Assembly: GCA_905236005.1 (NCBI GenBank)
Contig: CAJONJ010000035.1
Location: forward strand, 1-51,373
Length of the DNA stretch: 51,373 nucleotides
DNA from: an uncultured Alphaproteobacteria bacterium
GTDB taxonomy: Bacteria > Pseudomonadota > Alphaproteobacteria > Rs-D84
Direction of reading: 5' to 3'
In this document: positions 258 through 49,446 of the stretch, piece after piece
Numbering within the stretch: the first letter of the stretch is position 1
How the letters are laid out: every line of letters begins with the position of its first letter
Position numbers and translations under genes: made by a program
Notes under the pieces: model-generated
What the model was told of the DNA's origin: nothing
The model's database searches: none
Seen by the model: the letters and a program-made list of their open reading frames with translations, nothing else

Positions 258-286
258 TTGTTTTTTTTCGTAATTTATGGTACAAT
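258..286 (+). promoter_or_regulatory. sigma70 promoter of tail-fibre gene carrying shared spacer element TCGTAATTTATG
   Basis: TTGTTT-17 nt-TACAAT with extended -10 TG; 12-mer at 268-279 is identical to 49295-49306. Confidence 0.7.
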
Positions 287-295
287 ACAGTCACT

Positions 296-361
296 CAGCA
301 GACATATTCGTGTCAGCTGTTTTTTTTATTGCCTGCGTGTTTTTTTCTCGCAGTTTTTTTT
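296..361 (+). terminator. two tandem intrinsic terminator-like hairpins in tail-fibre leader
   Basis: CAGC-A-GACA/TGTC-A-GCTG + T8 (296-327); CTGCG/CGCAG + T8 (333-361), both between promoter and RBS. Confidence 0.6.
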
Positions 362-385
362 GTTATAACAAAAGGAGATAAATTT

Positions 386-1267
386 ATGCAAAAAGTATCA
401 TATATGGGAAACGGTTCTACAACCGAATTTGCTTTTAATTTTCCATATTTTGAAAATTCAAATATCATAGTGACTAAAAATAACGTAACCGCCACAGGAT
501 ACACAATTGTCGGTACATCAGCGGGTGCAGATGCAGATATTCCTTATACTGGGGGTAAAGTTGTTTTTGATGTTGCACCAACTGCATTAGATTGTATTTC
601 TATTGCACGTCAATTACCATTAACACGTATTGTTGATTATCAACCAACTGTTAAAATAGATCCTTGTGTGTTAAATCAAGATTTAAATTATTTAATGGAA
701 GTTATCAAAGACCGTCAAGATGAATTAGACGAACTGAGTACACAGTATGCAGAGATTGCAGATAAAGAATCTACAACAACACTGTTGGCACGTATTTCGG
801 CAATCCATGATGAAATTGTAGCTGTGTCAGCCCAAATTGCTGCACTGGGCGATATCAGTACACTGCGGACAGATGTGACAACAAATACGAATAACATTTC
901 AATACTGGATACCCGTACAACAAACCTAACAGATTATGTAATTATGTCCCAGACACCAACAGCAGAAAACAATTATACTTGGTATCGTAAATATAAATCT
1001 GGTTGGATTGAACAAGGCGGAATATGGACAGGAACAATTACAATACAATCAGATAATTCAGCAAACACAACAATCTATCTGCCTGTACAAATGTCTAACA
1101 CAAATTATTGTGTAAACGCAGTAAATAATTCTGGTGCAAACAGCGGAATCCCATGGGTTATGCTGTATGTTTGCGGTGTAACTGTATCATCCTTTATAGT
1201 AAGTATTGGTGCATACGGTAATACCAGAACCATAAACAGATTATCTTGGCAAGTATCTGGTATGTAG
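386..1267 (+). CDS. podophage-type tail fibre protein (T7 gp17-like N-terminal adaptor, coiled coil, gp53-like C-terminal domain)
   Basis: N-term Y-GNGSTTEFAFNFPY...RQLP...LNQDL; C-term WYRKYKSGWIEQGG...SWQVSG; AAGGAG RBS before ATG 386. Confidence 0.8.
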   Translation: MQKVSYMGNGSTTEFAFNFPYFENSNIIVTKNNVTATGYTIVGTSAGADADIPYTGGKVVFDVAPTALDCISIARQLPLTRIVDYQPTVKIDPCVLNQDLNYLMEVIKDRQDELDELSTQYAEIADKESTTTLLARISAIHDEIVAVSAQIAALGDISTLRTDVTTNTNNISILDTRTTNLTDYVIMSQTPTAENNYTWYRKYKSGWIEQGGIWTGTITIQSDNSANTTIYLPVQMSNTNYCVNAVNNSGANSGIPWVMLYVCGVTVSSFIVSIGAYGNTRTINRLSWQVSGM

Positions 1268-1269
1268 TA

Positions 1270-1298
1270 AAAAAATCCGGTTTTATACCGGATTTTTT
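1270..1298. terminator. bidirectional intrinsic terminator
   Basis: AAAAAATCCGG-TTTTATA-CCGGATTTTTT between convergent genes. Confidence 0.8.
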
Positions 1299-1714
1299 AT
1301 TTTTATAACTTTGGCAGGAATTCCTACAGCTATAGCATTATCGGGTACATCATTTATTACCACACTGTTTGCACCAATTGTTACATTTTTACCAATCTTA
1401 ACCGAACCAACTATTACAGCACCCGCATAAATTACAGTGTTTTCACCAATTGTTGGATAATGTTCTTTTGTCTTTCCATCACCAGTATCCAATGTTTTTG
1501 CACCTATAGTTACATTTGGATAAATCCAGCAATTATCACCAATAGTTGAAGGTCTTGCCACAACAATTCCAAACAAGTGCGGAAAATGAATTCCTCTTTT
1601 AATATAGTCATCGTAGTAACGAATATCACAACACGAATTCGGGTATCCTGGAAAAATTTCTTTATGTATGTTTTTATGATTAAAAATTTTACATGCTTTT
1701 TTTAATATAGTCAT
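1283..1714 (-). CDS. hexapeptide-repeat (serine acetyltransferase-like) O-acetyltransferase
   Basis: HFPHLFGIVV, IGDNCWIYPNVTIG, PTIGENTVIYAGAVIVG, VGIPAK; start 1714 preferred over 1723 from RBS spacing. Confidence 0.85.
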   Translation of the reverse strand: MTILKKACKIFNHKNIHKEIFPGYPNSCCDIRYYDDYIKRGIHFPHLFGIVVARPSTIGDNCWIYPNVTIGAKTLDTGDGKTKEHYPTIGENTVIYAGAVIVGSVKIGKNVTIGANSVVINDVPDNAIAVGIPAKVIKIKNPV

Positions 1715-2678
1715 ATTTATCATCCTTCGGTAAAACTAATAAATCTCCTAATTTTTTATTCCATTCCTCGGGCTCAAACTTTTCGTGTCCAGCTCCGTGA
1801 CAAAATGTCATTTCACCAAAATATATTTTATCGTCAACCATAAATAAATCTACTCTGACATGGGGAAAACCGCTACTTAATATTTTAGCTATTTTTTTCA
1901 TCGTTGAAAATCCAGCAGGCTTAACAATGTTTCCTTTATAAAGCGGATATAAAGTTGTAAACGGTTGTTTGTTAAATTCCATATCGTAAAAACAACGCTT
2001 ATGATCTGTAAATCTATCAATATCAATTTCACAATATTTTGGTACCCCATTAAAACAAAAAAATTTATAATCTAACAAATTTCCATCCATTTGTTCTATG
2101 TATTTTTCAGCGATAATTTTTGGTGGAATATCTTTGTATCCCCATTCAAAGAAATTGAAATAATGATTGCTTTCTGGACACATCCAATCAGTTAACTTCT
2201 GTTTTATATCTTTTACATCCATTTTAGATTTGTCTTTTATAATAATGTTTTGCCCAGATCCCCAGTTAATTTTTAAAACGAATTTGTCCGGCATGTTTTC
2301 AAAATCTATATCATCTGGACTATTATATACTCCAATGCAAGGAATTAAATATTGTGCACCGATTTTTTTTGCAATATAATCACGAACGGCTACTTTGTCT
2401 GCACATTGAGTCATTAACGGGTTACGATAATATAATTTTAACCATTGTAATTTTTCATTGAATGTTTCTGGATTTTCTATATGTAATCGACGACCCGTAT
2501 ACTTTTTAAATTGATATTTTAAACAATATTTCAATTCCGCATCCGTCAGTCCCTTAAAGCGGCGAGCATAAATTTTATCAAATTTTGAAACAAATTGTTT
2601 ATAATCGAAAATTTTTAAGCCAAACAAATAAACACCAATATGATTATTTGGTAATTTTTGTTTTTTTAATATTTTCAT
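1689..2678 (-). CDS. TupA-like ATP-grasp protein
   Basis: PETFNEKLQWLKL, ADKVAVRDY, DYKFFCFNG, HVRVDL, YFGEMTF motifs. Confidence 0.85.
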   Translation of the reverse strand: MKILKKQKLPNNHIGVYLFGLKIFDYKQFVSKFDKIYARRFKGLTDAELKYCLKYQFKKYTGRRLHIENPETFNEKLQWLKLYYRNPLMTQCADKVAVRDYIAKKIGAQYLIPCIGVYNSPDDIDFENMPDKFVLKINWGSGQNIIIKDKSKMDVKDIKQKLTDWMCPESNHYFNFFEWGYKDIPPKIIAEKYIEQMDGNLLDYKFFCFNGVPKYCEIDIDRFTDHKRCFYDMEFNKQPFTTLYPLYKGNIVKPAGFSTMKKIAKILSSGFPHVRVDLFMVDDKIYFGEMTFCHGAGHEKFEPEEWNKKLGDLLVLPKDDKYDYIKKSM

Positions 2679-3615
2679 TTTTCCAGCCTATAAATTTTTT
2701 TATACCTTGTTCAAAAGACGTTTTTGGATTGTATCCAAATAATCTTTTTGCTTTTGTGAAATCACAAACTGTTTTATCTACATCACCTGGTTGCATTGGT
2801 TTTTGATTTATAGTTGCTTTTTTGTTTAAAACCTTTTCTATGGTTTCAATCATGCGTGTTAATGTTATGGGTTCACCACCACCTAGGTTCACGATTTCAT
2901 AACCTGTTTTATTGTAATCTATGGCGGCACTTACACCAGAGATTATATCTTCTATGAATGTATAATCGCGTTTCGTTGTACCATCACCATACATATCAAT
3001 TGGTTCATCCTTTTCAATTTTTTCGACAAATTTACGAATAGCTAAATCAGGGCGTTGCCGTGGCCCATATACAGTGAAGAATCGTAAACATAACGCATTT
3101 ATATCATATAAATGATGATATGTATAGATTATCTGTTCACACGCTGATTTTGTCGCAGCATACGGGGATATAGGTTCTGTTACTTTTAAATCTTCATTAA
3201 AAGATTCTGCTTTGCAATTACCATATACTGAACTAGATGAAGCAAAAACAAGTTTTTTAATATTATGTGCTTTCATTTGCTCCAATATATTCACAGTTCC
3301 TAGTATGTTTGTTTCAACATATGCTATTGGGTTTTCTAAACTGGGACGAACACCCGCACGTGCTGCCAAATGGACAACAACATCAAATGCATTATCTGAA
3401 AAAACAGTACCCAAAGCGACCATATCACAGATATCACAACGATACAGTTTATAATTTGGATTGTTTATATTTGCACTGATATTTTTTTCTTTTAACCTTA
3501 CATCATAATAGTCATTAAAATTATCAACGACAACAATATGATGTCCCATCGATAATAATTTATCAGCCAAATTTGAACCAATAAAACCGGCACCACCGGT
3601 GATTAATATATTCAT
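2644..3615 (-). CDS. NAD-dependent nucleotide-sugar epimerase (UDP-glucuronate 4-epimerase-like)
   Basis: GGAGFIG, HLAARAGVRPS, ASSSSVYG, YAATK, RFFTVYGP, PGDV. Confidence 0.9.
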   Translation of the reverse strand: MNILITGGAGFIGSNLADKLLSMGHHIVVVDNFNDYYDVRLKEKNISANINNPNYKLYRCDICDMVALGTVFSDNAFDVVVHLAARAGVRPSLENPIAYVETNILGTVNILEQMKAHNIKKLVFASSSSVYGNCKAESFNEDLKVTEPISPYAATKSACEQIIYTYHHLYDINALCLRFFTVYGPRQRPDLAIRKFVEKIEKDEPIDMYGDGTTKRDYTFIEDIISGVSAAIDYNKTGYEIVNLGGGEPITLTRMIETIEKVLNKKATINQKPMQPGDVDKTVCDFTKAKRLFGYNPKTSFEQGIKKFIGWKNENIKKTKITK

Positions 3616-3624
3616 TTTCTACCC

Positions 3625-5640
3625 CTATGGTCGCATATATTTATCTTTGAATTTATGACGCATTTTACGATTTGGAATAAAGCAACATATTAATTTGCAA
3701 AACCATTTTGGTAAAACACGTGTCGATATTATTTTTGTCGGATCGTCTATGTGATGAATTATTTTCACAAATTCATCGTAAAACGGTGTCATTCTAGCAT
3801 AAAAAACAAAACTATCTACGATTTCTGACGGATATTCATTCGGATACATGTCAGGCTTGTTACCACAAAAATGTCGTATTAAAATACCATCCTTACCTAA
3901 ATTTTCATTTACATAGTTAGCTATTTCATTATTTCCAGACATTTGACTATATTCTCCAAACCAATTAAATCTATGCGGTAACCATTGATAATTCTGTTCA
4001 AAACATTTATTTATTGGATCCTGAGAGTTAAACAGTTTTAAATCTCGTATTTGTTTATCTGATTCTATAATTTTGGTTATAATATTCTGATTACGCCATT
4101 TTTCACAATCAATTAATAAAACCCCAGCATTAAAATATAAATGATTATTATCTATATATTTATATGCTTGATCCTGGATTGATTTATTAAATAACACATA
4201 CGAATCACCAATTGCACCAATTGTAAAATCATTTAGATTACTATCATATAATTCGCCGATATCGCCCCATACCAACAGATCAGTATCAATATATAAGGCA
4301 CGCTTTATATTTGGTAATAATCCAGGCATTAAAAAACGTGAATAATTAGCAATATTTTTTGTATAAACTGCATTTTTAGATTTAGCTACAAAATTATCTA
4401 CAATATATTGACGATTTTTATGTGATAAATTCAACCAATGAATATAACAATTTTTAAATATCTTACATAGTTTTGATACGGTCGTTTTGTTTTTCTTGGA
4501 TATATTATCAACCAAAATATAAAAATGACAATTGCGTTTTGTGTTATAACAAACACTAGCGACGGTTGTTGCCACATATCGCAAGTAATTAGTATCTGTT
4601 GTTAGGAATATATTTATTTTACTTTTTATGTATCTTTTAAACTTTATTTTTATACCAAGTATGCAAAATACTTTATATTTATCATCTTTTGAATGTTTGA
4701 TAGAAAATATATGCTCAATAAATTTATAATTATCATTTCCCCATAAACATTCTGAAAAAGTTTTTTTATTGTATTTGTGATACCGTTTATCGCATTTTTC
4801 TATAATTTTTGAATTATTAAATTCTTGTGCTAAATGTTTAGTGCATTGAATAATATTATTTGCCCATGTTTGAAATTGCAGTTTGTGTTTTTTGTATAAT
4901 TTATGTACAATTAAGTGATTATATACATTATCAACAATGTACAGAATATCGCCAAGTTTATCGCCTTTGTTTTCTTTATTTCCCATGATTGAATCATTAC
5001 GAATTAAGTAATTATAAAATTTATTTGGTATGAATATACCTCGGCGAACTTTGGTATTATAATACCAATTAAAACTTTCATCTTCATTGATTAAACCCAC
5101 ATCAAAACGTAAGTGGTATTTGTCAATAATACTCTTTTTATACAATTTTCCCCATGCTACAGCTGGTCCGGATATTACTTCTGATCCAGATAAATTTGTT
5201 GTTTGACTGTTTGTGTCGAAATACTGAACCTTACCATCAAAAGCATTTGGTTTATTTTTTCCGGTATAAAATGGTTTTACCCCAGCAATAACAATGTCTA
5301 TATCATCGCTACGCATTGTTTTTAGCATAGTTTCAATAGTCTCAGGTTCAATATAATCATCTGAATCTAAGAAATATATATATTGACCAGTTGCTATATC
5401 TAAACCTGTATTGCGTGCCGCAGATAAACCGCCGTTTGTTTGATGAACAACACGAATACGTTTATCTTTTTTCGCAAATTTATCACACATTTGCGGACAC
5501 TTATCAGGTGAACCATCATCTACAAGGATGATTTCTAAATTTGTGTACGTTTGACCAATTACAGATTTAACACATTGTCCCAAATAATCTTCAACTTTAT
5601 ACACAGGGATAATAATACTTATCAATTCTTTAGATTTCAT
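3625..5640 (-). CDS. GT2-GT8 fusion glycosyltransferase
   Basis: N-term IIPVYKVE, VDDGSPD, FLDSDD; C-term YSRF, YIDTD, YFNAGVLLI, SQD, HFCGNKP. Confidence 0.88.
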   Translation of the reverse strand: MKSKELISIIIPVYKVEDYLGQCVKSVIGQTYTNLEIILVDDGSPDKCPQMCDKFAKKDKRIRVVHQTNGGLSAARNTGLDIATGQYIYFLDSDDYIEPETIETMLKTMRSDDIDIVIAGVKPFYTGKNKPNAFDGKVQYFDTNSQTTNLSGSEVISGPAVAWGKLYKKSIIDKYHLRFDVGLINEDESFNWYYNTKVRRGIFIPNKFYNYLIRNDSIMGNKENKGDKLGDILYIVDNVYNHLIVHKLYKKHKLQFQTWANNIIQCTKHLAQEFNNSKIIEKCDKRYHKYNKKTFSECLWGNDNYKFIEHIFSIKHSKDDKYKVFCILGIKIKFKRYIKSKINIFLTTDTNYLRYVATTVASVCYNTKRNCHFYILVDNISKKNKTTVSKLCKIFKNCYIHWLNLSHKNRQYIVDNFVAKSKNAVYTKNIANYSRFLMPGLLPNIKRALYIDTDLLVWGDIGELYDSNLNDFTIGAIGDSYVLFNKSIQDQAYKYIDNNHLYFNAGVLLIDCEKWRNQNIITKIIESDKQIRDLKLFNSQDPINKCFEQNYQWLPHRFNWFGEYSQMSGNNEIANYVNENLGKDGILIRHFCGNKPDMYPNEYPSEIVDSFVFYARMTPFYDEFVKIIHHIDDPTKIISTRVLPKWFCKLICCFIPNRKMRHKFKDKYMRP

Positions 5641-5652
5641 ATCGTGCTGTCC

Positions 5653-6660
5653 TTATTTTAATTTATTTTTCATATCTGATTGTTTTTGTGTGTAATACTT
5701 TCTTGTGTGTCCAAATGTCAAATGTTTCAATATAGTAGATTTTATATATTGAAACTTATAGAATTTTAGCTTTCTTAGATTAAAATCAGAACAATTTTCA
5801 CTTTCTATAAAAAACCGAAAATCTATATCAAAATATTTTTTATATGGTGACTGTAATAATTTATATTTCTTAATAAATTGAATTAAAACTTCAGCAATAG
5901 AATTTCGTTGTTCTTCTGAAAAATTGACACTATACATTCTGTAAAAAGGTTCTACTCTTATAAAAGATAAAGCATGTAGTTTGTTTCTATCAATAACTTT
6001 GTATTTGTCATAAAAATTATTTAAAATATCAAACCATTTTTTTATATCTTTTGTTAATTGAACAGGATCTATTGTGTGTTCACTAGAATCTTTATGTTGT
6101 CTATAAAAATAATACGGATGTGGAACAAAACTTACATTATCAGTTAATGCTAGCAATTGATGTGAAAATAGACCGTCTTCACAAATTTGCAAGTGTTCGG
6201 GGTATCTTACATAAGGGTATTTATCTAAAAAACTTTTTTTGATACCGATAGCCATTGTTGGTAATGCACCAAGAACTTCTCTTTTTCTTTGATACCAATT
6301 ATAATTACCTATTACCAAAATATCTGGAAAGTTTTTTTGTTCTATATCTGCAACAATTTTTTCTACATAATCCGGCTCTATTGTGTCATCAGAATCTACA
6401 AAAATTATATAGTCACCTGTTGTTGCAGATATACCATCATTTCTAGCCATAGACACACCATCATTTTCTTTATCTATAATCTTTATCCTGCTATCTTGCT
6501 TTCCGTAATCATTTAATATATTCAACGAATTATCCTTAGAACCATCATTAATGCATATCACCTCTATATTTTTATAAGTTTGACACATAACACTATCAAT
6601 GCATTCGTGTAAATATTTTTCCATGTTATATACTGGAATTATTATAGAAACTTTAAGCAT
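5653..6660 (-). CDS. GT2 family glycosyltransferase
   Basis: IIPVYN, INDGSKD, FVDSDD, ED motif. Confidence 0.88.
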   Translation of the reverse strand: MLKVSIIIPVYNMEKYLHECIDSVMCQTYKNIEVICINDGSKDNSLNILNDYGKQDSRIKIIDKENDGVSMARNDGISATTGDYIIFVDSDDTIEPDYVEKIVADIEQKNFPDILVIGNYNWYQRKREVLGALPTMAIGIKKSFLDKYPYVRYPEHLQICEDGLFSHQLLALTDNVSFVPHPYYFYRQHKDSSEHTIDPVQLTKDIKKWFDILNNFYDKYKVIDRNKLHALSFIRVEPFYRMYSVNFSEEQRNSIAEVLIQFIKKYKLLQSPYKKYFDIDFRFFIESENCSDFNLRKLKFYKFQYIKSTILKHLTFGHTRKYYTQKQSDMKNKLK

Positions 6661-7588
6661 TATGCTTCCTTTTTATTTTTATATTTACACCACAAAGTGT
6701 GATTACTTTATACTTGCCATCTGATGAATTGGTTAAACAAAATATTTTCTGTAATACATGTTCCAGCTTTTTCATAAAACATATGTGTTCCACAGGATAT
6801 TTATTATGTTTCAACATATATATTTTTTCATCATCCCACCAAGTACTCTGATTCCAATGAATTGCCACGGTTTTCTCTGTAAAAGATTTATTTTGAAATA
6901 CACACCATGTCGGACAAAAATATTCACAAGGATAAATTGTTATTGTTTTAGATTTATCTTGCCATATACATTCGTGTGTATACAAATCATAATCATCTAA
7001 TTGTTTAGTTGGAACTAATGGATCAAAATATTTACCTGCTCTAGATTCTTGGCTTTTTGTTTTGAAAGATAGTCTCGTAAAACCATATTGTTCTTGTAAC
7101 AGTTTTTTCATTATCACATTGGCAATAAAATTATCTATAGAAAAGATATCTTCAGATTCGTATATTTTCATACATTCTTTAAATACTTTATGTCCAGCTA
7201 CACCACCCATAACAGCGGGCTCTGGAATGTTTTCTCCAAACAAAATATCGCCTTCGATACTAATAAAAAAATCGTTTTCTAAAAATTTATCAAAATTGCT
7301 TACAACTTCTACATCAGTATCTAAATATATACCACCATGTTTATATAAAGCATAATGTCTAATATAATCAGAAACAAAAGCCCATAATTTTAATTCATAC
7401 GCACGTTTTACAAACGGAGATTTGCTGATAATTTCTTGAAATTCTGGCATTTTATCATGCCATAACATTAATTTGTAATCTGGACAATGTTTCAACCATG
7501 AATTTATACACATCCGTACTTGTGATTTTTTGTCTTTTTGCCAAATATTAACGTCATCATAAAAATAATGTATTATTTTTGGTATCAC
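6653..7588 (-). CDS. GT32 (DXD, Och1-like) glycosyltransferase
   Basis: IPKIIHY, AFVSDYIR, GGIYLDTDVE; GTG start with GGGGG(T)G RBS. Confidence 0.85.
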   Translation of the reverse strand: MIPKIIHYFYDDVNIWQKDKKSQVRMCINSWLKHCPDYKLMLWHDKMPEFQEIISKSPFVKRAYELKLWAFVSDYIRHYALYKHGGIYLDTDVEVVSNFDKFLENDFFISIEGDILFGENIPEPAVMGGVAGHKVFKECMKIYESEDIFSIDNFIANVIMKKLLQEQYGFTRLSFKTKSQESRAGKYFDPLVPTKQLDDYDLYTHECIWQDKSKTITIYPCEYFCPTWCVFQNKSFTEKTVAIHWNQSTWWDDEKIYMLKHNKYPVEHICFMKKLEHVLQKIFCLTNSSDGKYKVITLCGVNIKIKRKHNA

Positions 7589-7605
7589 TATTTCACCCCC
7601 CGTTT

Positions 7606-7974
7606 TTATGAATTACGACCATACATATCTTCAAACCGAACAATATCTGTTTCATCTAATATATCGCCCATCTGAATTTCAACAATTTCAACAACTTCGT
7701 TTGTTAAATTTTCTAGTCTATGTCTGGTTTGTACAAGAATATCAATTGACTGTCCGAAACCATACGTCTTTGTTATATCCCCAACGGTTATTGTTGGATT
7801 CCCTTTGACAACAGTCCAATGTTCATCACGATGCAAATGTGTTTGTAACGACAATGATTGGTGCGGATTGACCGTAATAACCTTTGCAATATACTTATCA
7901 CCAACCGTAATACATTTCCATGTCCCCCACGGACGTGTTCCGATTTCATTCAGGTTGTATTTTATTTCGCTCAT
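7606..7974 (-). CDS. cupin, mannose-6-phosphate isomerase type II (ManC C-terminal domain)
   Basis: RPWG, SLSLQTHLHRDEHWTVV, HRLEN, DIVRFEDMYGR. Confidence 0.88.
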   Translation of the reverse strand: MSEIKYNLNEIGTRPWGTWKCITVGDKYIAKVITVNPHQSLSLQTHLHRDEHWTVVKGNPTITVGDITKTYGFGQSIDILVQTRHRLENLTNEVVEIVEIQMGDILDETDIVRFEDMYGRNS

Positions 7975-8114
7975 TTCTAACCTTTTATCAGTCGAAGCTA
8001 TGATTTTGTGTTTTGTTAACAGGTTTTCAGTTAATATTAAACCAATCCTTAGACCATAGTTTTCTCTACATATGATTCCATGCCATCGTATTGCAAAAGC
8101 ACGAACAAATCAAG

Positions 8115-9774: not shown

Positions 9775-9792
9775 AGTGATAATTCAAAATAC

Positions 9793-11429: not shown

Positions 11430-11457
11430 AAAAACCGTCCGTTTGGGCGGTTTTTTA
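11430..11457 (+). terminator. intrinsic terminator after aspS
   Basis: AAAAACCGTCC-GTTT-GGGCGGTTTTTT. Confidence 0.8.
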
Positions 11458-11514
11458 ATACTTGCAGTTTGGAATACTTATGGTTTTATCTTGCAAAAAA
11501 GAGGTAAAATCAAC

Positions 11515-40438: not shown

Positions 40439-40453
40439 GCCGAAACCAGACAA

Positions 40454-41865: not shown

Positions 41866-44800
41866 TTAGGCAGCCAAATCACCGTAATGATGACTTGTTT
41901 TCCAAGCTTCAAATTTTTGTTGCATCAAGGTTTTTCCGTCAGCATTTTTTTCATCCATTTTTTCTTGCAACTTTTTGACACTAAGATGGAATAATGTTTT
42001 GGTCTTTCCTGTTTGCAAGAAATCCCAATAAGCCATCAATTCCGCATAACCATTTTTGTTCTTCGTTTCCCATTCAGCAATTTTAGTTTGACGGGATGTT
42101 TTCGCATCTTCTAGTGTTTTTTTCTGTTCCACAATATTTTCATACTGTGCGATATTTGCAGATAATTTATTTAATTTATCCTTTTGTTCCTGATATGTTG
42201 CTTGTTTTTCCACAGCATCTTTATACGGTGTTTTACCAGTATTAGCATCAGTTTTTTTAAAGGTGTTTTCGTACTCTGTTTTGATATTGCTCCATTCTTT
42301 GCCTGCCAGTAATTGTGCACGTTCATCCTGTAACGATTTCAACGTTGCTGTGTCTTCCTGTTTTTCCGCTTTAATTAACACTTCTTCATCCAGCATAGGA
42401 TTATCTTTTATATCTTTGTCTAATCTGTTTTTATCAGCACTCAATTGTCTGTATTGTTGTACCAATTGTGATGAAAGCATACTTTCCTGGGTTTCGTTAC
42501 CAACATCTTTGAAACGAGGGTCTTCTAATGGCTTGCCATTTGCATCCAACAGAGGTTTTTCTAACGATGGTTTTTTGTTTTTATCTGATAATTTTTTGTA
42601 TGTTTGACCCCATTTCAGCATATCAGGTCTCATTTTGGCTATTTTTGTGTTTACATCAGCCAATTGTTCCTGTCGTGTTTTTTTAGAATCATATTCTTTC
42701 AGTTGTTGATTAACACGTTGCTGTTGTGCGTCATTTTTTATCAAATCAATATATTGCTTCTCCAAAGCAGTATATTCAACAACCTTTTTAAGTGGTTCAC
42801 TGAAAGTTAAATCCAAACGTTCCTGCATAATTTTTAACAACTGTTTTTGGACTTCTAAATTATCGGCACTTACCGCATAATCTATATCTACACTATCGTT
42901 ACCTATTGCAAATTTATCTGGGTTTGCTATGCTTAATTGCTTCAACTCTTCGTCTAATGCATAAAGTCTATCTTTATCATCTGGATTGGTGACATTATTG
43001 TTGTTTGTTTTTGTTAATTTATCTGTTTTTGTTGTGTTTTTTAACTCCGTCAACTTGGCATCCAAAGCTGCAATTTGTTGGTTGTCACGTTCATCGTCAA
43101 TTTTATTCTTAGCAATATTATCTGCCTTAGCAAGATCTAATCTGGCTTGTTCCTCTTTAATTTTGTCTTGCATTTTGCCAGAATGATTAAATTTTTTGCC
43201 AACACGACGAATAATTCTATTCATACCAGCAGTTGCAGCATATCCGGCGACCACCGAACCAACTTTAATTGTTTTATCCAATGCACCAGTTACAAAACGA
43301 ATACCGGCATTTTTATTCCATGACAATTTATCATCTGAAAACAGACTGAAATCTGTTCCTTTGATGGCATCCATGGTTCTGCCAGTAAATGTGCCGTATT
43401 GCATAACTGCCAACACTTCCAAAGCTGTTTTTGCTTCATCTATTTTTTGTGGTGATGCTTTGACAGCTTTCTCAGCTAAACTTTCAACGATAGTTTGCAT
43501 TTGGCCACCGTTATGTGTTGCGTTGGCAAATGCTTTTTTTACCTCTGGTTTCATATCATTCATGGCTGTAATAAACCATTCAAAATGCTTTACTGCCAAT
43601 GCGTGGTCTTTTCTGACAGCCTTTTTTATGGCTTCTGCATTTTTAATAATTGCACCAATACCATCTTTCGGGGTAATTTTGATTGGTTTACCATCGTCAT
43701 CTTTTAATTTATCAATAGCTTTCATGATAAATTGGGCTTCTTTTGAAATATACAGGTGATCACGATGTAAATGTGCTAAAGATTTAATAGAATCTTTATA
43801 AGTGTCTTCAATTTTGTCTTTTATTTCATCAACAAAATCTTTTGAATCATAAGATGCAGCAGGCACTTCGTCTTCAGCGTCAGTTTTACCAGTATAATCA
43901 GTTAGTGCTTTTGCTTTGTCCAAAGATTCAGAAATGTCCGTATCAGGATATTCACATTTTTTAAATTCTCTGTATACATTTGAATTATCGTGAATTCTGG
44001 TCAATATAGCCTGATAATATGGCAATTTTTCTTTTTGTGTTGGTGACACAAAATATTCAGCTTGTGCATTTTCACCATTTGCAATACCTCTAAACCTTTT
44101 TAATTGTTCTTCGGTAACTTCTGCTGGTTTACGCAATTCTTCCAGCAAGTTCTTTACACCCAATGGTGCAGCCTGCGTAAATAAACGTTGTCCAGATTCA
44201 TCAATTATAGATCCGCTGTAAAACCTTTTATTTTCCCATGTGTCCAAAACATCTAACAGTTTATCTCTGACTTTTGCATCTGTCAGATATTTTTTGTTTT
44301 TCATATCATTTTTAAAATTATCAAAATCGTTTTGGGCTTTCTGACTACGTTTATCACCAAAAGAATCCATAACGATTTGGTCAGCATTATCATCCATCAA
44401 AATCTGCGTAAATTTATCAATTCTGGCTTCTATGTCTGGACTGATAGATTTCAATGAAAACAGTTTGCCGTCTGCTGGATTTGGACTGTAAAAATCTAAA
44501 ACAAAGTTTCTTGCAGCAGTAGCACCAGGTTCTTCAAACTTATCTTTTTGGCGATTGGTATCCATACGGATGAAAATTTCTTGTAATTTATTGAACAATT
44601 CCTTCCAATCTTTTTCGGTCAGTTCTTTGGAAACCTGTTTATCTGTTTTTGCAGAATCCAGAAGTTTTGTCCATTTAAATTCTTTGTTTCCATCAGGTAA
44701 TTCGTTTCTAACCCAATTGCCGCTGCCTGCTGGATCTTCGTGTAACAAATCCTTTTTCCACCGTTCCATGTGACCACGAAGTCCCTTGTTTTGTACATAT

Positions 44801-44889
44801 TTTACAAATGTCTGCCAATTAGCCTCTGGCATTTTATTAATATGTCTTTGACGATAAAATAATGTTAAATAATCTGTAATTGCTGACAT
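41866..44889 (-). CDS. large hypothetical alpha-helical/coiled-coil protein
   Basis: 1007-aa ORF, GAGGTG RBS, K/E/Q-rich C-half, downstream terminator. Confidence 0.75.
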   Translation of the reverse strand: MSAITDYLTLFYRQRHINKMPEANWQTFVKYVQNKGLRGHMERWKKDLLHEDPAGSGNWVRNELPDGNKEFKWTKLLDSAKTDKQVSKELTEKDWKELFNKLQEIFIRMDTNRQKDKFEEPGATAARNFVLDFYSPNPADGKLFSLKSISPDIEARIDKFTQILMDDNADQIVMDSFGDKRSQKAQNDFDNFKNDMKNKKYLTDAKVRDKLLDVLDTWENKRFYSGSIIDESGQRLFTQAAPLGVKNLLEELRKPAEVTEEQLKRFRGIANGENAQAEYFVSPTQKEKLPYYQAILTRIHDNSNVYREFKKCEYPDTDISESLDKAKALTDYTGKTDAEDEVPAASYDSKDFVDEIKDKIEDTYKDSIKSLAHLHRDHLYISKEAQFIMKAIDKLKDDDGKPIKITPKDGIGAIIKNAEAIKKAVRKDHALAVKHFEWFITAMNDMKPEVKKAFANATHNGGQMQTIVESLAEKAVKASPQKIDEAKTALEVLAVMQYGTFTGRTMDAIKGTDFSLFSDDKLSWNKNAGIRFVTGALDKTIKVGSVVAGYAATAGMNRIIRRVGKKFNHSGKMQDKIKEEQARLDLAKADNIAKNKIDDERDNQQIAALDAKLTELKNTTKTDKLTKTNNNNVTNPDDKDRLYALDEELKQLSIANPDKFAIGNDSVDIDYAVSADNLEVQKQLLKIMQERLDLTFSEPLKKVVEYTALEKQYIDLIKNDAQQQRVNQQLKEYDSKKTRQEQLADVNTKIAKMRPDMLKWGQTYKKLSDKNKKPSLEKPLLDANGKPLEDPRFKDVGNETQESMLSSQLVQQYRQLSADKNRLDKDIKDNPMLDEEVLIKAEKQEDTATLKSLQDERAQLLAGKEWSNIKTEYENTFKKTDANTGKTPYKDAVEKQATYQEQKDKLNKLSANIAQYENIVEQKKTLEDAKTSRQTKIAEWETKNKNGYAELMAYWDFLQTGKTKTLFHLSVKKLQEKMDEKNADGKTLMQQKFEAWKTSHHYGDLAA

Positions 44890-45042
44890 TGCGACACCTC
44901 TTGGTTACATACCTATCCCCTTGCCCTACATATTATAGTATCTTTATGGTGTCTTTTCAAGGTTTTTGTCAAATTTTATTTGTTTTTTACTAGGTTTTTG
45001 TTCTTGTATGCAAATCAGCTGTGTCGTTTTATAATCAATAGT

Positions 45043-45654
45043 ATGAATTTTATACATGTTTTTTTGAAAACAATTCCGTATGTTTTATCCATAGCTGGTG
45101 GCACGATAGTCTTTGATGTTTCGCAGAAATACATGCACACAGCGGGTTTAAAAGATTTGTTGGATAATATATCTGCATCATTATTGGCAATACCGCTAGT
45201 GTTTCTGTTTTATGATTATTCAAATTTTCTGATAACACGACGTATGCATAAACATCAGCATACTAACATTATCAACGCAGTAGATAATCATTTAATGAAA
45301 ATTTTGAACATTTTGAAAGTGATCACAGGTCAGCCACATATTACAATTCCTATGCAGGATTTAAATTTAAATTATAAAAAAATCAAATGTGATGCAAAAC
45401 ATTGTCGGACATTACGAAAATATCTGAATGAACTGGAAGATTTGCTGTATAAATCAGACAAAATAGAGGTTCTGGATTCTCAGCATACACAAATTCTGGC
45501 GTTCATAGTCCAAGAATTAAACCAGATTTTAAACGAATTTAAATATCATAACCCACCCAAAGAAATCGCCAGATATCTGGAAACAACATTGTCTATGATA
45601 GAAGATTGGTTTTATTTCACTGGATATAAAGCTCGTAAAAAATCATCAAAATAA
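45043..45654 (+). CDS. hypothetical membrane protein
   Basis: Two N-terminal hydrophobic segments; ATG 7 nt after TATAAT. Confidence 0.7.
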   Translation: MNFIHVFLKTIPYVLSIAGGTIVFDVSQKYMHTAGLKDLLDNISASLLAIPLVFLFYDYSNFLITRRMHKHQHTNIINAVDNHLMKILNILKVITGQPHITIPMQDLNLNYKKIKCDAKHCRTLRKYLNELEDLLYKSDKIEVLDSQHTQILAFIVQELNQILNEFKYHNPPKEIARYLETTLSMIEDWFYFTGYKARKKSSK

Positions 45655-45702
45655 AATACATAATTTAAAAAAATAAACGACCAAAATGGTCGTTAATCTT
45701 TG

Positions 45703-45778
45703 TGGTGGAGGCACAGAGACTCGAACTCTGGACCCAATGATTAAAAGTCATTTGCTCTACCAACTGAGCTATGCCTCC
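45703..45778 (-). tRNA. tRNA-Lys (UUU)
   Basis: 76-nt cloverleaf: GGAGGCA/TGCCTCC acceptor, AATGA-CTTTTAA-TCATT anticodon arm, TTCGA T-loop, encoded CCA. Confidence 0.97.
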
Positions 45779-45952: not shown

Positions 45953-46528
45953 ATGACAGATATTAAAAAAAATACACCAGAAATTTGTGCAATCACAGCA
46001 GTTGGACCCAAAAATGTTATCGGATTAAACGGAACTATGCCATGGCATTCTCGTCAGGATTTTTACCATTTCATAAAACTGACCACCGGTTATCCTGTAA
46101 TATTTGGTAAAAATACGTTTTTCAATTTACCTAAATATCCGTTACCAAAACGTTTGAACATAGTATGCAGTTCTGCATACAAAAATGAAAATCTTGGTGA
46201 TTTTGTGTGTGTTCCGTCTTTGGAAGCAGCATTTGAATATTGCAAAGGTTTTGATAAATTGTTTATTTGTGGCGGGGCAGGGCTGTATAAATATGCTTTG
46301 GACAAAGATTATATAGATACTATGTATTTTACCAGATTGACAGAACCAACATTATCTGCACAAATCATAAAGAATCCGACAGAATTTATTTGTTTTCCGA
46401 TTGATACAAAGGTGCTGTTCAGTTCTCCAAAATGGTCTTGTGAACGAATTTTTTATCCACCAGATGTGTTACCACTGGAACAAAGTGACATAGTAGTAGA
46501 ATTTTTCAAGTTCACCAGAATCAGATAA
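45953..46528 (+). CDS. folA: dihydrofolate reductase
   Basis: VIGLNGTMPWH..QD..HF...T, GKNTF, PLPKRLNIV, ICGGAGLY. Confidence 0.92.
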   Translation: MTDIKKNTPEICAITAVGPKNVIGLNGTMPWHSRQDFYHFIKLTTGYPVIFGKNTFFNLPKYPLPKRLNIVCSSAYKNENLGDFVCVPSLEAAFEYCKGFDKLFICGGAGLYKYALDKDYIDTMYFTRLTEPTLSAQIIKNPTEFICFPIDTKVLFSSPKWSCERIFYPPDVLPLEQSDIVVEFFKFTRIR

Positions 46529-46604
46529 TCGTGATTTTTTCTTGATTTTATAAGGTATTGTTGTAATATCTGCGAGTGTTTTGCGTAATCAAAGGGCCGT
46601 ACAC

Positions 46605-47378
46605 ATGAATTTTAATTGGTATTTATTTTTTCACAATGTTTTAAATAATCCAGGTGGTTGGATGTATCTTAGATACTGGGATTTTTCGCAATATCAAAAC
46701 TTTGTTCGAATTCCAGCAGAATGGAAAAATGCAGATTTATCTTTTTCATATGGATTGCCTGAAAATATAGATTGTTCGTTTTGTGAACGTATAAATTTTT
46801 CTAATGTTGTTTTTAAAACAGGAACGTCTATAAAATTGAATCAGTATTCAACAGAAGTCAATTTGTCTAATACCACAGGATTATACGGTGCTTTTGAATG
46901 TGGTGGTATGGGCAAAGTCAGTTTTCGTGGGGCTGATATGAGCAACATTTTCAGATTTCAGGGTGCAAAAAGAACTGATTTGACCGGGGCGACTGGGTTA
47001 TTTGGTTTGTTTGATTTCAGATTCACAGATTATTTAAATATGACAAATACAGATGTCAGCCATGCACAGATTTATTTTAATCCAAATGCTAAAAAAATCA
47101 ATTTAACCAACGTCAAAGGATTGTCTGGTGTTCTTGATTTTGGCAATGCTGAACATGTTGTGTTGTTTGGTGCAGATTTATCACGTGTTACAAAAATTAT
47201 ATGTGGCCCAAATACTGATTTGCAGGGTGCGGTTAATTTTGACGGTAAAATTGAATATTCAACCAGTAAACAGCTCAGCCAGAAAATCGCAGGCACTAAA
47301 CATGTTTACAGAAATTGTGCCAAAGCACAAGTTCGTAGATATCGCCGTATGGGCTTTTGTGGCAGGGGCAGCCGTTAA
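46605..47378 (+). CDS. beta-solenoid (pentapeptide/LRR-like) repeat protein
   Basis: Three ~35-40 aa repeats: vNLsnttGLyG..GADMS, tDLtgatGLfG..NTDVS, iNLtnvkGLsG..GADLS. Confidence 0.6.
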   Translation: MNFNWYLFFHNVLNNPGGWMYLRYWDFSQYQNFVRIPAEWKNADLSFSYGLPENIDCSFCERINFSNVVFKTGTSIKLNQYSTEVNLSNTTGLYGAFECGGMGKVSFRGADMSNIFRFQGAKRTDLTGATGLFGLFDFRFTDYLNMTNTDVSHAQIYFNPNAKKINLTNVKGLSGVLDFGNAEHVVLFGADLSRVTKIICGPNTDLQGAVNFDGKIEYSTSKQLSQKIAGTKHVYRNCAKAQVRRYRRMGFCGRGSR

Positions 47379-47426
47379 AATAAAATCTTATAGCATTGCA
47401 TACGTAAAAATTGTATAATTACGTGC

Positions 47427-48353: not shown

Positions 48354-48475
48354 TATTGAAAATAAAATTTAAAATCCTAGGAAAAAATGTGTTGATTTCA
48401 AATTTGCTTTGTTTTATACTTGTAAACGTGAAGTAGGAAGTGTTCACAAAAAAAAACAAACAAGGGAGAAAATCA

Positions 48476-49201
48476 ATGAAAAAAACAGTTTTAACAAGCA
48501 TTGTTGCATTGATGATGTCAACGGTTGCTGCAACTGCTGCAGAAACATGCAAAACATGTGGTTCTAATTTTAAGGTATTCTTTGGTGCAAGTGCTGGTAT
48601 GCAGGGCTTGAATTATGATACCGCATTTAGTATGGTTACAGAAAATATGGGACATTTATTCGGGTGGGGAGATGCGAGTGATCCTACAAGTATGTACAAT
48701 TTTGCTTTGAAATTTCCAAAACGTAACACGGTTGTTGGTATGGAAGCGGGTGTCCGTTTTGGTGAATACAAAAGTGTTTGGAATGGCGGTGTAACATTAT
48801 CTGCAGATAAAACATTGGGTAAAAAACCAGGTATGGTATTACCAGAAAAATTTGGTGAAACCGCTAAAACTTTTATACCAAGTTTAGCTGTGAAAGATAT
48901 CAGAGTAAATTCAGATGTATTCGCAATAACATTTGATAACTATATTCGCTTAAATAAATCTATGGAAAATCGTGTAGATTTGGTTGTTGGTGTTGGTGCG
49001 GCAGATATTGAAACAAACATTAGTTTGTTCGGTGTAGGTTTATCATTAGACGCACACGCAGCAGTATTCAAAGCTGGATTGGAAATACAATTAACAGATG
49101 TTATTTCTATGACAATGGGTACACGTATGTATATGCCAATTGCGGCACAATACTTTGATACATCTTATGCATTAAAGGGTGGATTTAAATTCTCATTCTA
49201 A
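48476..49201 (+). CDS. outer membrane beta-barrel protein
   Basis: Signal peptide, alternating beta strands, C-terminal FKFSF. Confidence 0.7.
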   Translation: MKKTVLTSIVALMMSTVAATAAETCKTCGSNFKVFFGASAGMQGLNYDTAFSMVTENMGHLFGWGDASDPTSMYNFALKFPKRNTVVGMEAGVRFGEYKSVWNGGVTLSADKTLGKKPGMVLPEKFGETAKTFIPSLAVKDIRVNSDVFAITFDNYIRLNKSMENRVDLVVGVGAADIETNISLFGVGLSLDAHAAVFKAGLEIQLTDVISMTMGTRMYMPIAAQYFDTSYALKGGFKFSF

Positions 49202-49223
49202 TCAGCAAAGAATATATCAAATT

Positions 49224-49256
49224 AAAAACGTCACGCGGTTGTGTGACGTTTTTTTA
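49224..49256 (+). terminator. intrinsic terminator
   Basis: AAAAACGTCACGC-GGTT-GTGTGACGTTTTTTT. Confidence 0.8.
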
Positions 49257-49284
49257 TAAAAAATCAAATCACAAATAAAACGAC

Positions 49285-49313
49285 TTGACTTTTATCGTAA
49301 TTTATGATATTAT
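49285..49313 (+). promoter_or_regulatory. sigma70 promoter of lysis/head module carrying shared spacer element TCGTAATTTATG
   Basis: TTGACT-17 nt-TATTAT with extended -10 TG; 12-mer at 49295-49306. Confidence 0.75.
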
Positions 49314-49338
49314 AAGAAGCATCAAGAATAGAAATTAT

Positions 49339-49408
49339 ATCCACATTTGACGGTGGATTTTTTTTTTATTCTTGTTTTTGTCCGCACATATTCTGTGCGG
49401 TTTTTTTT
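49339..49408 (+). terminator. two tandem intrinsic terminators in leader
   Basis: ATCCAC/GTGGAT + T-run; CCGCACA-TATTC-TGTGCGG + T8. Confidence 0.7.
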
Positions 49409-49446
49409 ATTGCGACAAAATAAAAAAACAACGGAGAGAACCAATC

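Follow-up and report, generated by a model that had tools for sequence, protein, structure and literature searches.

Terminator-bearing promoter leaders ahead of domesticated T7-like virion and lysis genes suggest a read-through-gated regulon in Ca. Enterousia

What controls phage-type virion and lysis genes whose promoters run into tandem terminators before the first ribosome-binding site (RBS)? This question is raised by the window, the whole stretch of 51,373 nt analysed here, which is an entire chromosomal contig of a reduced gut alphaproteobacterium, Ca. Enterousia (order Rs-D84; assembly of 881 kb). Part of a virion and lysis gene set, domesticated and T7-like (short-tailed), lies on this contig. 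The two virion modules headed by promoters P1 and P2 had been described as 49 kb apart; this distance separates the head of a remote accessory fibre gene from the head of the main cluster, itself truncated at the contig end. The remote tail-fibre unit comprises the following features:

258..286, + strand: P1, sigma70-type extended -10 promoter, TTGTTT-17-TG-G-TACAAT, read from the sequence; heads the remote tail-fibre gene
296..327, + strand: P1 leader terminator 1 (T1), hairpin 296-319 (one A.A mismatch) and T8 320-327; RNAfold -10.2 kcal/mol, z -3.0
333..361, + strand: P1 leader terminator 2 (T2), 5-bp GC stem, 11-nt loop and T8 (hairpin 333-353, T-run 354-361); RNAfold -6.7 kcal/mol, the weaker of the P1 pair
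386..1267, + strand: tail-fibre gene, 293 aa, T7-type N-terminal adaptor domain (phrog_1640 tail, 6.5e-17; weak PF03906 and PF21882 matches; tblastn matches to podophage tail fibres)
1270..1298, + strand: terminator ending the fibre transcription unit (consensus scan, 12-pair stem)

The main virion and lysis cluster, with the end of the gene upstream of it, is laid out as follows:

49224..49253, + strand: own terminator of the upstream outer-membrane beta-barrel gene, 5' of P2 (-16.9 kcal/mol; listed by the consensus scan)
49285..49313, + strand: P2, near-consensus extended -10 promoter, TTGACT-17-TG-A-TATTAT (consensus scan 10/12, with TG)
49339..49367, + strand: P2 leader terminator 1, hairpin 49339-49358, T-run to 49367 (RNAfold -7.0 kcal/mol)
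49382..49408, + strand: P2 leader terminator 2, hairpin 49382-49400, T-run 49401-49408 (RNAfold -10.8 kcal/mol, z -5.2)
49438..49857, + strand: cell-wall hydrolase/endolysin, 139 aa (phrog_938 endolysin, 2e-8; PF07486 match under cut-off)
49876..50071, + strand: conserved 65-aa small ORF containing hydrophobic stretches; only its position is holin-like (homologues in relatives; no family match)
50066..50722, + strand: T7-type capsid assembly (scaffold) protein (PF05396, 2e-8)
50822..51088, + strand: Lys/Ala-rich histone H1-like gene within the cluster (PF07382, 2.2e-13; also in G003)
51108..51184, + strand: two tandem intrinsic terminators inside the cluster, 5' of the capsid gene (-35 kcal/mol over 91 nt; consensus scan)
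51213..51245, + strand: conserved palindrome-bearing stretch before the capsid gene, TTGTGT-16-TACATA with GCGTAATTTATT (genome comparison)
51309..51373, + strand: start of the major capsid gene, 21 codons up to the contig end (encoded N-terminus 90% identical to that of the G075 capsid); the remainder is absent from the assembly

The phage-derived virion genes are fixed and vertically inherited in the host clade, as expected of a gene transfer agent (GTA; viriform). The scaffold gene is present in 37 of 41 related genomes, in 24/24 other genomes of the genus and in 8 of 10 genera, the gene order is constant, and portal identity is 79-95% across 80 loci. In single comparisons the portal exceeds DnaB in conservation (76 vs 69% for G003; 82 vs 75% for G075). 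The set is also dispersed and has no replication or lysogeny module of its own, another GTA (viriform) trait: in G075 the main cluster lies at 788-801 kb, the fibres at 137 and 902 kb and the lysins at 656 and 787 kb, and, apart from dnaB-xre-p214, all genes of the main cluster are of structural, lysis or packaging type. A tblastn search with the proteins of one podophage as queries, which is a weak test, gave no phage RNA polymerase, primase or SSB.

We then examined the promoters. P1 (TTGTTT-tttttcgtaatttatgg-TACAAT, 258-286) and P2 (TTGACT-tttatcgtaatttatga-TATTAT, 49285-49313) both carry TGn one base 5' of TAnnnT and a -35 element at 17 +/- 1, and are thus extended -10 sigma70 promoters. 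As originally noted, they share TCGTAATTTATG at the same offset from -10 and agree at 15/17 spacer positions, which makes them the most alike of 11,628 pairs among 153 promoter-like spacers of the assembly (runner-up, 13/17; chance of about 0.003 per pair against the TRTGn profile). The near-palindrome ascribed to this spacer does pair in part, but weakly (5/6 in P2, 4/6 in P1). Could a Q- or GafZ-like antiterminator load at this spacer, which would then define the regulon? The close P1/P2 match speaks for this, as does the position of the GafZ-binding palindrome of Caulobacter, which is described as GC-rich, lying between -10 and -35 and occurring at a single target promoter (PMC11150451). 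Several observations nevertheless make such a role very unlikely. The P2 promoters of relatives have other spacers (e.g., TGTCAATT, TTGCGATT, GGCAAAAA, and TGTAAAAA), so that the conservation in relatives by which the original prediction was to be judged is absent; in the 14/14 genus genomes, TTGACTTT and T..TG.TA...T are invariant, whereas the spacers vary freely outside the -35, the T-run and the extended -10, and neither a conserved palindrome nor a conserved operator was seen in these 14 promoters. Within single genomes the P1/P2 spacers agree at only 8 to 14 of 17 positions (G002, 10/17; G009, 14/17; G004, 8/17; G003, 8/17), and a third cassette of the window's own genome (contig C9) has a different spacer (11/17). 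The assembly of 881 kb has three exact copies of the 12-mer, of which the one besides P1 and P2 (C39:101902) is out of promoter register, and an 11/12 copy stands in register before a non-phage trypsin-like peptidase gene that has no leader terminators (C28:25790). In addition, the TATG(R) within it corresponds to TRTGn, the extended -10 element general to promoters of this genome (among the 153 promoters, 35 have TGn and 15 have TRTGn). The shared 12-mer is therefore best explained as the organism's general strong-promoter consensus (a T-run after -35, AATTTRTGA before -10) together with within-genome sharing among cassettes, rather than as a factor-binding site. Promoters of the same TRTGn/AATTTRTGA flavour drive ordinary and housekeeping genes without terminators, and thus the terminators are the distinguishing part of the cassettes.

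The proteins expected to load at such a site were also absent from the genomes searched. DUF6456 (PF20057), the GafZ-type family, had no match in the window's genome (0/1), in the order (0/61 genomes) or among the high-quality genomes (0/50), while Caulobacter matched as the control. Of the Q families PF06530, PF03589, and PF06323, the first two were used in six-frame searches of G000, G075, G041, G003, and G067, which gave 0/5 genomes over the cut-off for each family, with best scores of 13.9 and 14.9 bits. The window's genome encodes a single NusG with no paralogue, and its only sigma factors are RpoD and an RpoH-like protein, with no small sigma-like or extra sigma region-4 gene of the kind that had been anticipated.

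The two intrinsic terminators noted before the first RBS at each promoter were confirmed by reading the hairpins and T-runs and by RNAfold. They have the GC-containing hairpin followed by a U-tract of intrinsic (Rho-independent) terminators, and may be classed as such, the P1 pair only under looser criteria. The consensus scan lists P2 and both P2 terminators and omits the P1 elements, because the -35 of P1 matches only 3/6, its T1 has an internal mismatch and its T2 an 11-nt loop; that the P1 terminators are modest and missed by the stricter scan counts against a gating role. The sequence noted as common to P1-T1 and P2-T2 is present in loop and tail (ACATATTC(G)TGT ... T8-ATTGC). RNAalifold recovered P2 terminator 2, with compensatory, both-side changes at 4 of 6 pairs. 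The beta-barrel gene upstream of P2 has its own terminator, and hence the P2 leader terminators are not simply its stop signal in this genome. Another possibility is that the cassettes serve to make small RNAs, namely the short terminated leaders, or that the hairpins are 5' stability elements, with the downstream genes transcribed otherwise. Conservation of the P2 5' leader, in which C36, A37, T38, A40, and A43 are invariant in 14 genomes, would fit this idea, yet the conserved segment is complementary to the T1 U-tract and is hence explained as part of an extended terminator stem: the A-rich leader (49323-49335) can pair with that U-tract. Moreover, the 25-30 nt between the last terminator and the RBS hold no promoter-like site at P1 or P2, the leaders of the other cassettes are not conserved in sequence, and the leaders have no Rfam match, which together render this possibility extremely improbable. 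The P2 leaders have A/T-rich -ATTAT- strings preceding T1; these might correspond to the -10-like, sigma-dependent pause element that Q systems have close to the promoter in the initial transcribed region, or equally to the terminator's A-tract arm. By eye, we had the impression of a boxA-like string in the C9 leader of the window's genome.

Comparison with relatives indicates that the promoter-to-leader-terminator layout is kept across the whole bacterial order. By eye, the main-cluster promoter is present at 12/12 genus loci, with two leader terminators at all of them except G001, which lacks T1; with G003 and G075 included, the counts are 14/14 for the promoter and 13/14 for both terminators. 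For 12 loci of other genera, a scan of the sequence 5' of the cluster start gave one or more terminators at 9 loci and two or more at 4 of them, the remaining 3 loci not containing the cluster start. Remote fibre loci have a same-type promoter and at least two hairpin/T-run sites in 8/8 cases (by eye), and the two G075 fibres have one terminator each. A further cassette of the window's genome, before a Phage_Mu_F protein (C9:10948), recurs in 6/6 orthologues of that locus (by eye), and GH108/MuF-lysin loci carry a cassette in 8/12. Inside the cluster, the 400 nt preceding the capsid gene contain at least one terminator-like site in 63/63 loci (at least two in 58/63), and a terminator separates p76 from tail gene A in 42/68; the corresponding counts at control junctions are 0/66 (capsid-p76), 0/69 (tailA-tailB), 0/69 (tailB-p115), and 5/78 (terLC-portal). 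The palindrome before the capsid gene varies on both sides (by eye), reading GTAA..TTAC in the window, GCATA..TATGC in G075, and GCAT..ATGC in G003.

Many relatives lack a separate terminator for the gene preceding P2 (BirA-like by eye), whose transcripts may thus end at the leader terminators as well. This bears on an explanation by passive attenuation or insulation, in which the terminators damp very strong promoters and block upstream read-through, giving fixed low virion expression with no dedicated factor. It agrees with the co-directional upstream gene ending 15-40 nt before P2 without its own terminator in most relatives, with the lack of any antitermination factor in our searches, and with moderate hairpin strengths (-6.7 to -10.8 kcal/mol). 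On the other hand, a conserved near-consensus promoter 5' of terminators would be wasteful if low output were the aim, the window's genome retains both P2 leader terminators despite the upstream gene's own terminator, a constitutively leaky endolysin/holin unit would come at a cost, and a processive mechanism accounts better for the intra-operon terminators ahead of the capsid gene. We consider passive attenuation conceivable but unlikely.

To assess specificity, whole assemblies were scanned. The window's genome has 620 terminator-like sites forming 20 tandem pairs, and only two of the 20 have a promoter-like string 5' and an RBS and start codon 3', namely P1 and P2. In the complete genome G075 (958,618 bp; 790 terminator-like sites, 27 tandem-pair rows), three promoter-flagged pairs were found, one at the main cluster, one at a GH108 lysozyme gene, and one at an EcoRI-type adenine methylase gene. 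The methylase, one candidate for the regulon, is not obviously virion-related. The layout is not exclusive, since a promoter-like string with one terminator behind it was likewise seen at a TrpRS gene (C22:3009) and at several loci without annotation. Overall, the promoter-into-terminator architecture is largely specific to phage-type genes; this specificity, with its conservation, makes a co-ordinated, read-through-gated regulon a reasonable reading.

We therefore retain one part of the original prediction of an antitermination regulon, the shared and conserved terminator-gated cis-architecture of the scattered virion genes, and set aside the spacer as a loading element and the assignment to Q or GafZ. 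We propose that P1 and P2 belong to a family of promoter-leader cassettes heading virion and lysis transcription units in Ca. Enterousia, each with a near-consensus sigma70 extended -10 promoter and, after 10-45 nt, one to three putative intrinsic terminators before the RBS, the main cluster itself having extra terminators ahead of both the capsid gene and the tail genes. Because the cassette promoters run into terminators, RNA polymerase should mostly yield short terminated leaders there, and expression of the lysis and virion genes would have to wait until polymerase becomes terminator-resistant; an endolysin as the first product encoded behind P2 speaks for a tight off-state. The most likely means would be a trans-acting processive antitermination factor acting on all cassettes at once, with the logic of lambda PR'-tR'/Q. 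This proposal takes the promoters to be active, termination to be efficient, and read-through to come from a dedicated factor rather than from leakiness. In our judgement, the terminator-gated cis-architecture is very probably real and functional, whereas the chance that a dedicated antitermination factor is the switch is a shade under even. The sequence comparisons leave roughly balanced odds for the reading as a whole, a terminator-gated regulon that needs read-through, probably via an antiterminator, with no Q or GafZ family membership. The layout suggests a read-through switch acting on domesticated phage genes, with the shared spacer motif not its key.

Alternatively, the main switch might act at initiation, through a repressor or cell-cycle control (e.g., the cluster XRE protein or methylation-dependent control), with the terminators as a secondary safety catch. 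The cluster indeed encodes a 348-aa XRE protein with two XRE-type HTH domains in 73/73 loci carrying all five genes, and the genomes also contain an adenine methylase and, judged by eye only, a GcrA-like protein. But the promoters show no conserved operator, their spacers vary freely, and same-flavour promoters drive housekeeping genes; we regard initiation control as quite unlikely to be the main switch. Searches for family and fold matches were uninformative for the XRE protein and p214, conserved non-structural genes of the cluster, and for p115R, an orphan that is also conserved.

Finally, we compared the proposed terminator-gated regulon with known systems. In lambdoid PR'-tR'-Q, polymerase leaving a strong and apparently constitutive sigma70 promoter meets one or more intrinsic terminators within tens of bases, directly 5' of the lysis and virion genes. 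The cassettes resemble this arrangement in having a strong promoter and close intrinsic terminators 5' of lysis/virion genes, conserved in relatives, and the further intra-operon terminators would imply processive polymerase modification. They differ in the absence of a Q protein (PF06530 and PF03589, 0/5 over the cut-off) and of a conserved element between -35 and -10, in having several dispersed cassettes instead of one late promoter, and in serving chromosomal, vertically inherited genes and not a prophage. In HK022 put, N/nut, and rrn boxA, a signal in the early transcript leads to read-through of several successive terminators; passage of successive terminators would be common to both, whereas no leader motif common to all cassettes was seen here.

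Another comparison is with the GTA of Caulobacter, where GafY and GafZ are described as acting on a main cluster that needs terminator read-through, with accessory genes elsewhere in the genome and, behind the first gene, a terminator that consists of three GC-rich direct repeats of 150 bp (PMC11150451). Both cases involve an alphaproteobacterium, a domesticated phage gene set, and dispersed accessory genes. In contrast to that description, several loci here have ordinary hairpin/T-run terminators, placed in the 5' leader instead of behind the first gene; neither a conserved palindrome nor a DUF6456 gene (0/61 genomes) was found, and the particle genes are T7-like and not HK97/RcGTA-like. FpGTA of Faecalibacterium prausnitzii is described as a GTA-like element of probable short-tailed morphology, encoded at more than one locus, whose packaging was shown experimentally (PMC12946183); the available part of that account makes no mention of leader terminators. 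FpGTA belongs to another phylum, and its experimentally shown packaging sets it apart from the present set. By description, both are GTA-like sets of probable short-tailed morphology spread over multiple loci in a gut bacterium.

Two promoters in the window, P1 of a remote tail-fibre gene and P2 of the main virion and lysis cluster, were found in the sequence where the original prediction had placed them, and each is followed by two hairpin and T-run sites (the leader terminators T1 and T2) before the ribosome-binding site (RBS). Promoter, leader terminator(s) and RBS are together referred to as a cassette:

258-286 (+), P1, TTGTTT-17-TACAAT
296-327, T1 behind P1
333-361, T2 behind P1
49285-49313 (+), P2, TTGACT-17-TATTAT
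49339-49367, T1 behind P2
49382-49408, T2 behind P2

The hairpins fold at -10.2 and -6.7 kcal/mol behind P1 and at -7.0 and -10.8 kcal/mol behind P2 (z = -2.8 to -5.2 against shuffled sequence). A consensus scan recovered P2 (10/12, with TG) along with its two terminators, and listed 8 terminator-like sites in 48400-51373 where 1.1 were expected. The scan missed P1, whose -35 element matches at 3/6 positions, and both P1 terminators, which depart from the scan model by a stem mismatch in one and an 11-nt loop in the other; the case for P1 thus depends on looser criteria and on conservation. As also predicted, TCGTAATTTATG is common to P1 and P2 at an equal offset, and the spacers match at 15 of 17 positions. 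A rival reading is that the leaders themselves act as small RNAs; at the gathering threshold, the sole Rfam match in the whole window was the tRNA at 45706-45778 (-).

Contig C35 of an 881-kb assembly of 46 contigs (79% complete) makes up the entire window. Terminal repeats or circularity were not detected; the contig is chromosomal, and ordinary chromosomal genes separate P1 from P2 (glycosyltransferases, two aminoacyl-tRNA synthetases, acetate kinase, DHFR, a Na/Ca exchanger and an outer-membrane beta-barrel protein). Downstream of P1 is a gene for a tail fibre whose N-terminal domain is of T7 type. From P2, the order runs endolysin, small hydrophobic ORF, T7-type scaffold protein, Lys/Ala-rich protein, two terminators and capsid, the last truncated at the contig end after its first 21 codons; the remainder of the cluster (p76, tail tubular A and B, p115, terminase and portal) lies on contig C18. 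Further features of the window are as follows:

1283-9230 (-), surface-glycan block adjoining the remote tail-fibre gene (hexapeptide transferase, TupA-like ATP-grasp, epimerase/dehydratase, five glycosyltransferases)
10108-11424, class II aminoacyl-tRNA synthetase gene
11443-12681, integrase-family gene adjoining the synthetase gene
12737-13780 (+), 41866-44889 (-), 44980-45654 (+) and 46581-47378 (+), four ORFs of 224-1007 aa with no Pfam/NCBIfam match
50822-51088 (+), the Lys/Ala-rich, histone H1-like gene between scaffold and capsid, kept in relatives G003 and G075
51108-51184, the two terminators ahead of the capsid gene

We further compared the cluster across Ca. Enterousia, to which the window's genome belongs, and its order Rs-D84, gut alphaproteobacteria with genomes below ~1 Mb. 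Of 41 related genomes, 37 had the scaffold gene, which was present in 8 of 10 genera and in every other genome of the genus (24 genomes, 61-80% identity); portal identity was 79-95% across the best 80 loci and exceeded that of DnaB (76 vs 69% in G003; 82 vs 75% in G075). Cluster gene order was unchanging among the loci compared, and the T7-like set (endolysin, scaffold, capsid, tail tubular A/B, split terminase and portal) is fixed in the genus and in most of Rs-D84, in genomes of 0.6-1.1 Mb with scattered fibre and lysin genes. In the complete relative G075 (958,618 bp), the main cluster spans ~12.5 kb and the fibre and lysin genes lie at least 100 kb off, so the window's fibre gene is a remote accessory locus; the distance from fibre to cluster is 30 kb in G003 and 95 kb in G004. 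These comparisons argue for a domesticated element rather than a passing prophage, and the set is a candidate for a gene transfer agent (GTA) of podovirus type. A phage-derived particle system appears to be kept by selection in the genomes below 1 Mb of this order; since such genomes lose nearly all dispensable genes, the particles probably have a role in gut DNA exchange or competition. No published description of phage-derived genes in Enterousia or Rs-D84 was found in a literature covered mostly by titles and abstracts, and PMC12306168 mentions neither phage, prophage, capsid nor gene transfer; a podovirus-like GTA-like element is reported from Faecalibacterium (PMC12946183). A T7-like RNA polymerase was considered as transcriber of the particle genes and rejected (HTVC011P RNAP query, tblastn, no match), the promoters being of sigma70 type. 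In about half of the genus loci (L032, L035 and others in L031-L110), a further gene of ~185 aa, encoding the T7 fibre N-terminal domain, stands between p115 and the N-terminal terminase part; the window's genome and G075 have no such gene at that place.

The large terminase gene (terL) is cleanly split (C18:14606-19337, equivalent to L030:12315-17046; G075 790218-794983) into an N-terminal ATPase part of 199 aa, which aligns with phage TerL residues 15-196, and a C-terminal part of ~282-307 aa with lid and nuclease. Between the halves, on the opposite strand, are dnaB, an XRE gene with two HTH domains and the orphan p214, with the start codons of dnaB and the C-terminal part overlapping head to head. 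This arrangement was found in 73/73 loci having all five genes (portal loci among L031-L110), and dnaB has one tblastn match in the complete G075 genome. Direct repeats of at least 11 nt were absent from the two edges of the insert.

The P2 promoter was present in 14/14 genus genomes and both leader terminators in 13/14, with G001 lacking T1. RNAalifold recovered T2, in which 4 of 6 pairs had changed on both sides; covariation was counted for T2 only because MAFFT left T1 unaligned. Upstream of the cluster start in 12 loci of other genera, three of which do not have that start in the sequence, terminator scanning found at least one site in 9 and at least two in 4, and a TGT-ATAGT -10 element was visible in six. 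At the remote fibre, a promoter and at least two hairpin/T-run sites were seen by eye at 8/8 loci. Within the assembly, 2 of 20 tandem terminator pairs had a promoter-like string upstream and an RBS and start downstream, namely P1 and P2; in G075, the three flagged with a promoter among 27 belong to the main cluster, a GH108 lysozyme and an EcoRI-type adenine methylase. The methylase gene (845742-846539 (+); L169:5742-6539) thus has a promoter and two terminators like the virion genes, and its T1 is nearly identical to the terminator of the G075 MuF-lysin gene. Single-terminator cassettes precede both fibres and a MuF+GH108 lysin beside the cluster end in G075, as well as a Phage_Mu_F protein gene in the window's genome (C9:10948), whose orthologues were all headed by such a cassette (6/6, by eye). 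Among GH108-family loci, 8/12 carried a cassette, one was unclear and three lay within operons or were mis-started.

Terminator-like sites also occur inside the cluster, with at least two within 400 nt upstream of the capsid in 58/63 loci and one at the junction of p76 and tail gene A in 42/68, against 0/66, 0/69, 0/69 and 5/78 at control junctions. Of the strict extended -10 promoters, 5/171 in the assembly had a terminator within 60 nt, and the three looked at were all of phage type; in G075 the count was 8/123, three belonging to the regulon and the remainder including unannotated genes as well as a repeat family that lies ahead of Cys-rich proteins. Moreover, a TrpRS gene has a promoter-terminator leader, and the layout is not perfectly specific to phage-type genes. 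Taken over these loci, the leader terminators are the conserved and largely specific feature of the cassettes. Their retention at cluster, fibre and MuF/GH108 loci lends support to the predicted regulon. Passive attenuation or insulation by the leader terminators is a rival account, favoured by the lack of a separate terminator behind the upstream gene in many relatives. In G075, a ~150-nt repeat (ATGCCTAATCTAAACCACCGTTTATAATGGCG...) stands upstream of two Cys/Gly-rich secreted proteins (595370 (+) and 769032 (-)).

The original prediction had also taken the shared spacer element for the mark of the regulon and the loading site of its factor. In the assembly, CGTAATTTATGNTANNNT occurs three times (P1, P2 and C28:25790), the third copy being in register with TTGTTT-17-TATAAT before a secreted trypsin-like peptidase gene and free of leader terminators; a near variant precedes a lipoprotein-like gene (C19:85897). 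Promoter-like sites upstream of ORFs numbered 153, with TGn in 35 and TRTGn in 15. Spacer positions 9-12 of the latter 15 are A-A/T-T-T, and AATTTRTGA ahead of the -10 is thus the general strong-promoter flavour of this genome, which also precedes adenylate kinase and many envelope genes. P1 and P2 are the most alike spacer pair (15/17; next best 13), the chance of at least 15 matches against the TRTGn profile is ~0.003 per pair, and their excess similarity is real within this genome. The 13 other P2 promoters retain TTGACTTT and T.TG.TA...T with varying sequence between, and P1/P2 spacer identity within a genome ranges widely (G002, 10; G009, 14; G004, 8; G003, 8 of 17). This variation in relatives, together with the terminator-free copy at the peptidase gene, tells against the spacer as regulon mark. 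Terminator sequence is likewise common to cassette pairs inside one genome, as in P1-T1 and P2-T2 here; the G075 methylase and MuF-lysin leaders share GACGAC-ATTRG-GTCGTC-T7-ATT, a hairpin that also heads the MuF genes of G019 and G024. From these patterns we read the shared spacer as a probable product of the common descent of cassettes and of exchange of sequence between them, not as a binding site, although it might conceivably be a species-specific one.

Homology of the read-through factor to Q or GafZ, as predicted, was not borne out: DUF6456 (GafZ) gave no match in the window's genome and matched in 0/61 genomes of the order (Caulobacter control positive), and two Q families gave nothing above cut-off in 5 genomes. 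A sigma4-like gene was likewise sought, and sigma region 4 was found only in RpoD and an RpoH-like protein; NusG is present in one copy. The conserved non-structural cluster genes encode the DnaB helicase, a 348-aa protein with two XRE HTH domains and p214. The last has no Pfam, PHROG or NCBIfam match, and a role as regulator or recombinase was rejected (TM 0.28-0.40 to unrelated or recombinase models, no usable feature match). Away from the cluster, the orphan p115R (113-123 aa, all-helical) is single-copy in 30/31 genus genomes:

C13:23035-23340 (-) (L214:442-792), p115R in the window's assembly
G075 31992-32339 (L128:11992-12339), p115R in the complete relative

Its promoter region is rich in conserved GANTC palindromes (GAATCGG-N4-CCGATTC, CAACC-N4-GGTTG), and the 'terminator' upstream probably belongs to the preceding gene. 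No Pfam/PHROG match was obtained; the best Foldseek PDB match had E = 2.2, and the AlphaFold model has pLDDT 72 and pTM 0.62. None of the XRE protein, p214, p115R and DnaB can be named as the factor.

A near-consensus promoter stands directly ahead of terminators, which are followed by endolysin and virion genes with further terminators inside the operon, and processive antitermination acting on all cassettes would most simply explain this layout. From sequence we infer active promoters, hairpins that stop transcription efficiently and a factor for read-through; alternatively, the switch may act when transcription starts, and the terminators may be a back-up. The layout resembles the lambdoid late promoter (PR'-tR'/Q) and is alike in spirit to GafZ in the Caulobacter GTA, but its cis features differ from those given in PMC11150451, where GafZ has one target promoter with a GC-rich palindrome and the terminator, which follows the first gene, consists of three 150-bp repeats. 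Processive antitermination here would be a new variation on a known logic, with a putative factor. Tentatively, and with clearly less than even confidence, we propose that Enterousia and Rs-D84 carry an undescribed podovirus-derived GTA-like particle, whose dispersed genes are under a new processive antitermination, neither Q nor GafZ, with constitutive promoters locked by leader terminators, a conserved orphan as key (e.g., the XRE/p214 pair or the 115-aa orphan with the GANTC-rich promoter) and a terminase permanently split around the cell's only dnaB. If confirmed, read-through control would be a second, independent case of a domesticated phage particle silenced by terminators, after lambda-type Q/Caulobacter GafZ, and would offer a simple, portable cis-module plus a new factor to find. 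The cassette (extended -10 promoter, hairpin and T-run, RBS) may allow the members of the regulon to be listed in uncultured genomes from sequence alone. The domesticated T7-like particle system in which it sits extends across the order and is of wider interest.

We also found a conserved leader, TTGGTTCCCC..GGGGCGGGCTG..AAGTCGGGG..CTGAATGTAC..GAACCAATCAAA, at four loci (L184, L188, L189 and L194) upstream of secreted proteins of 238-255 aa, which are paralogues with an N-terminal domain in common with the C9 MuF protein; this structured-looking leader may be a riboswitch-like element.
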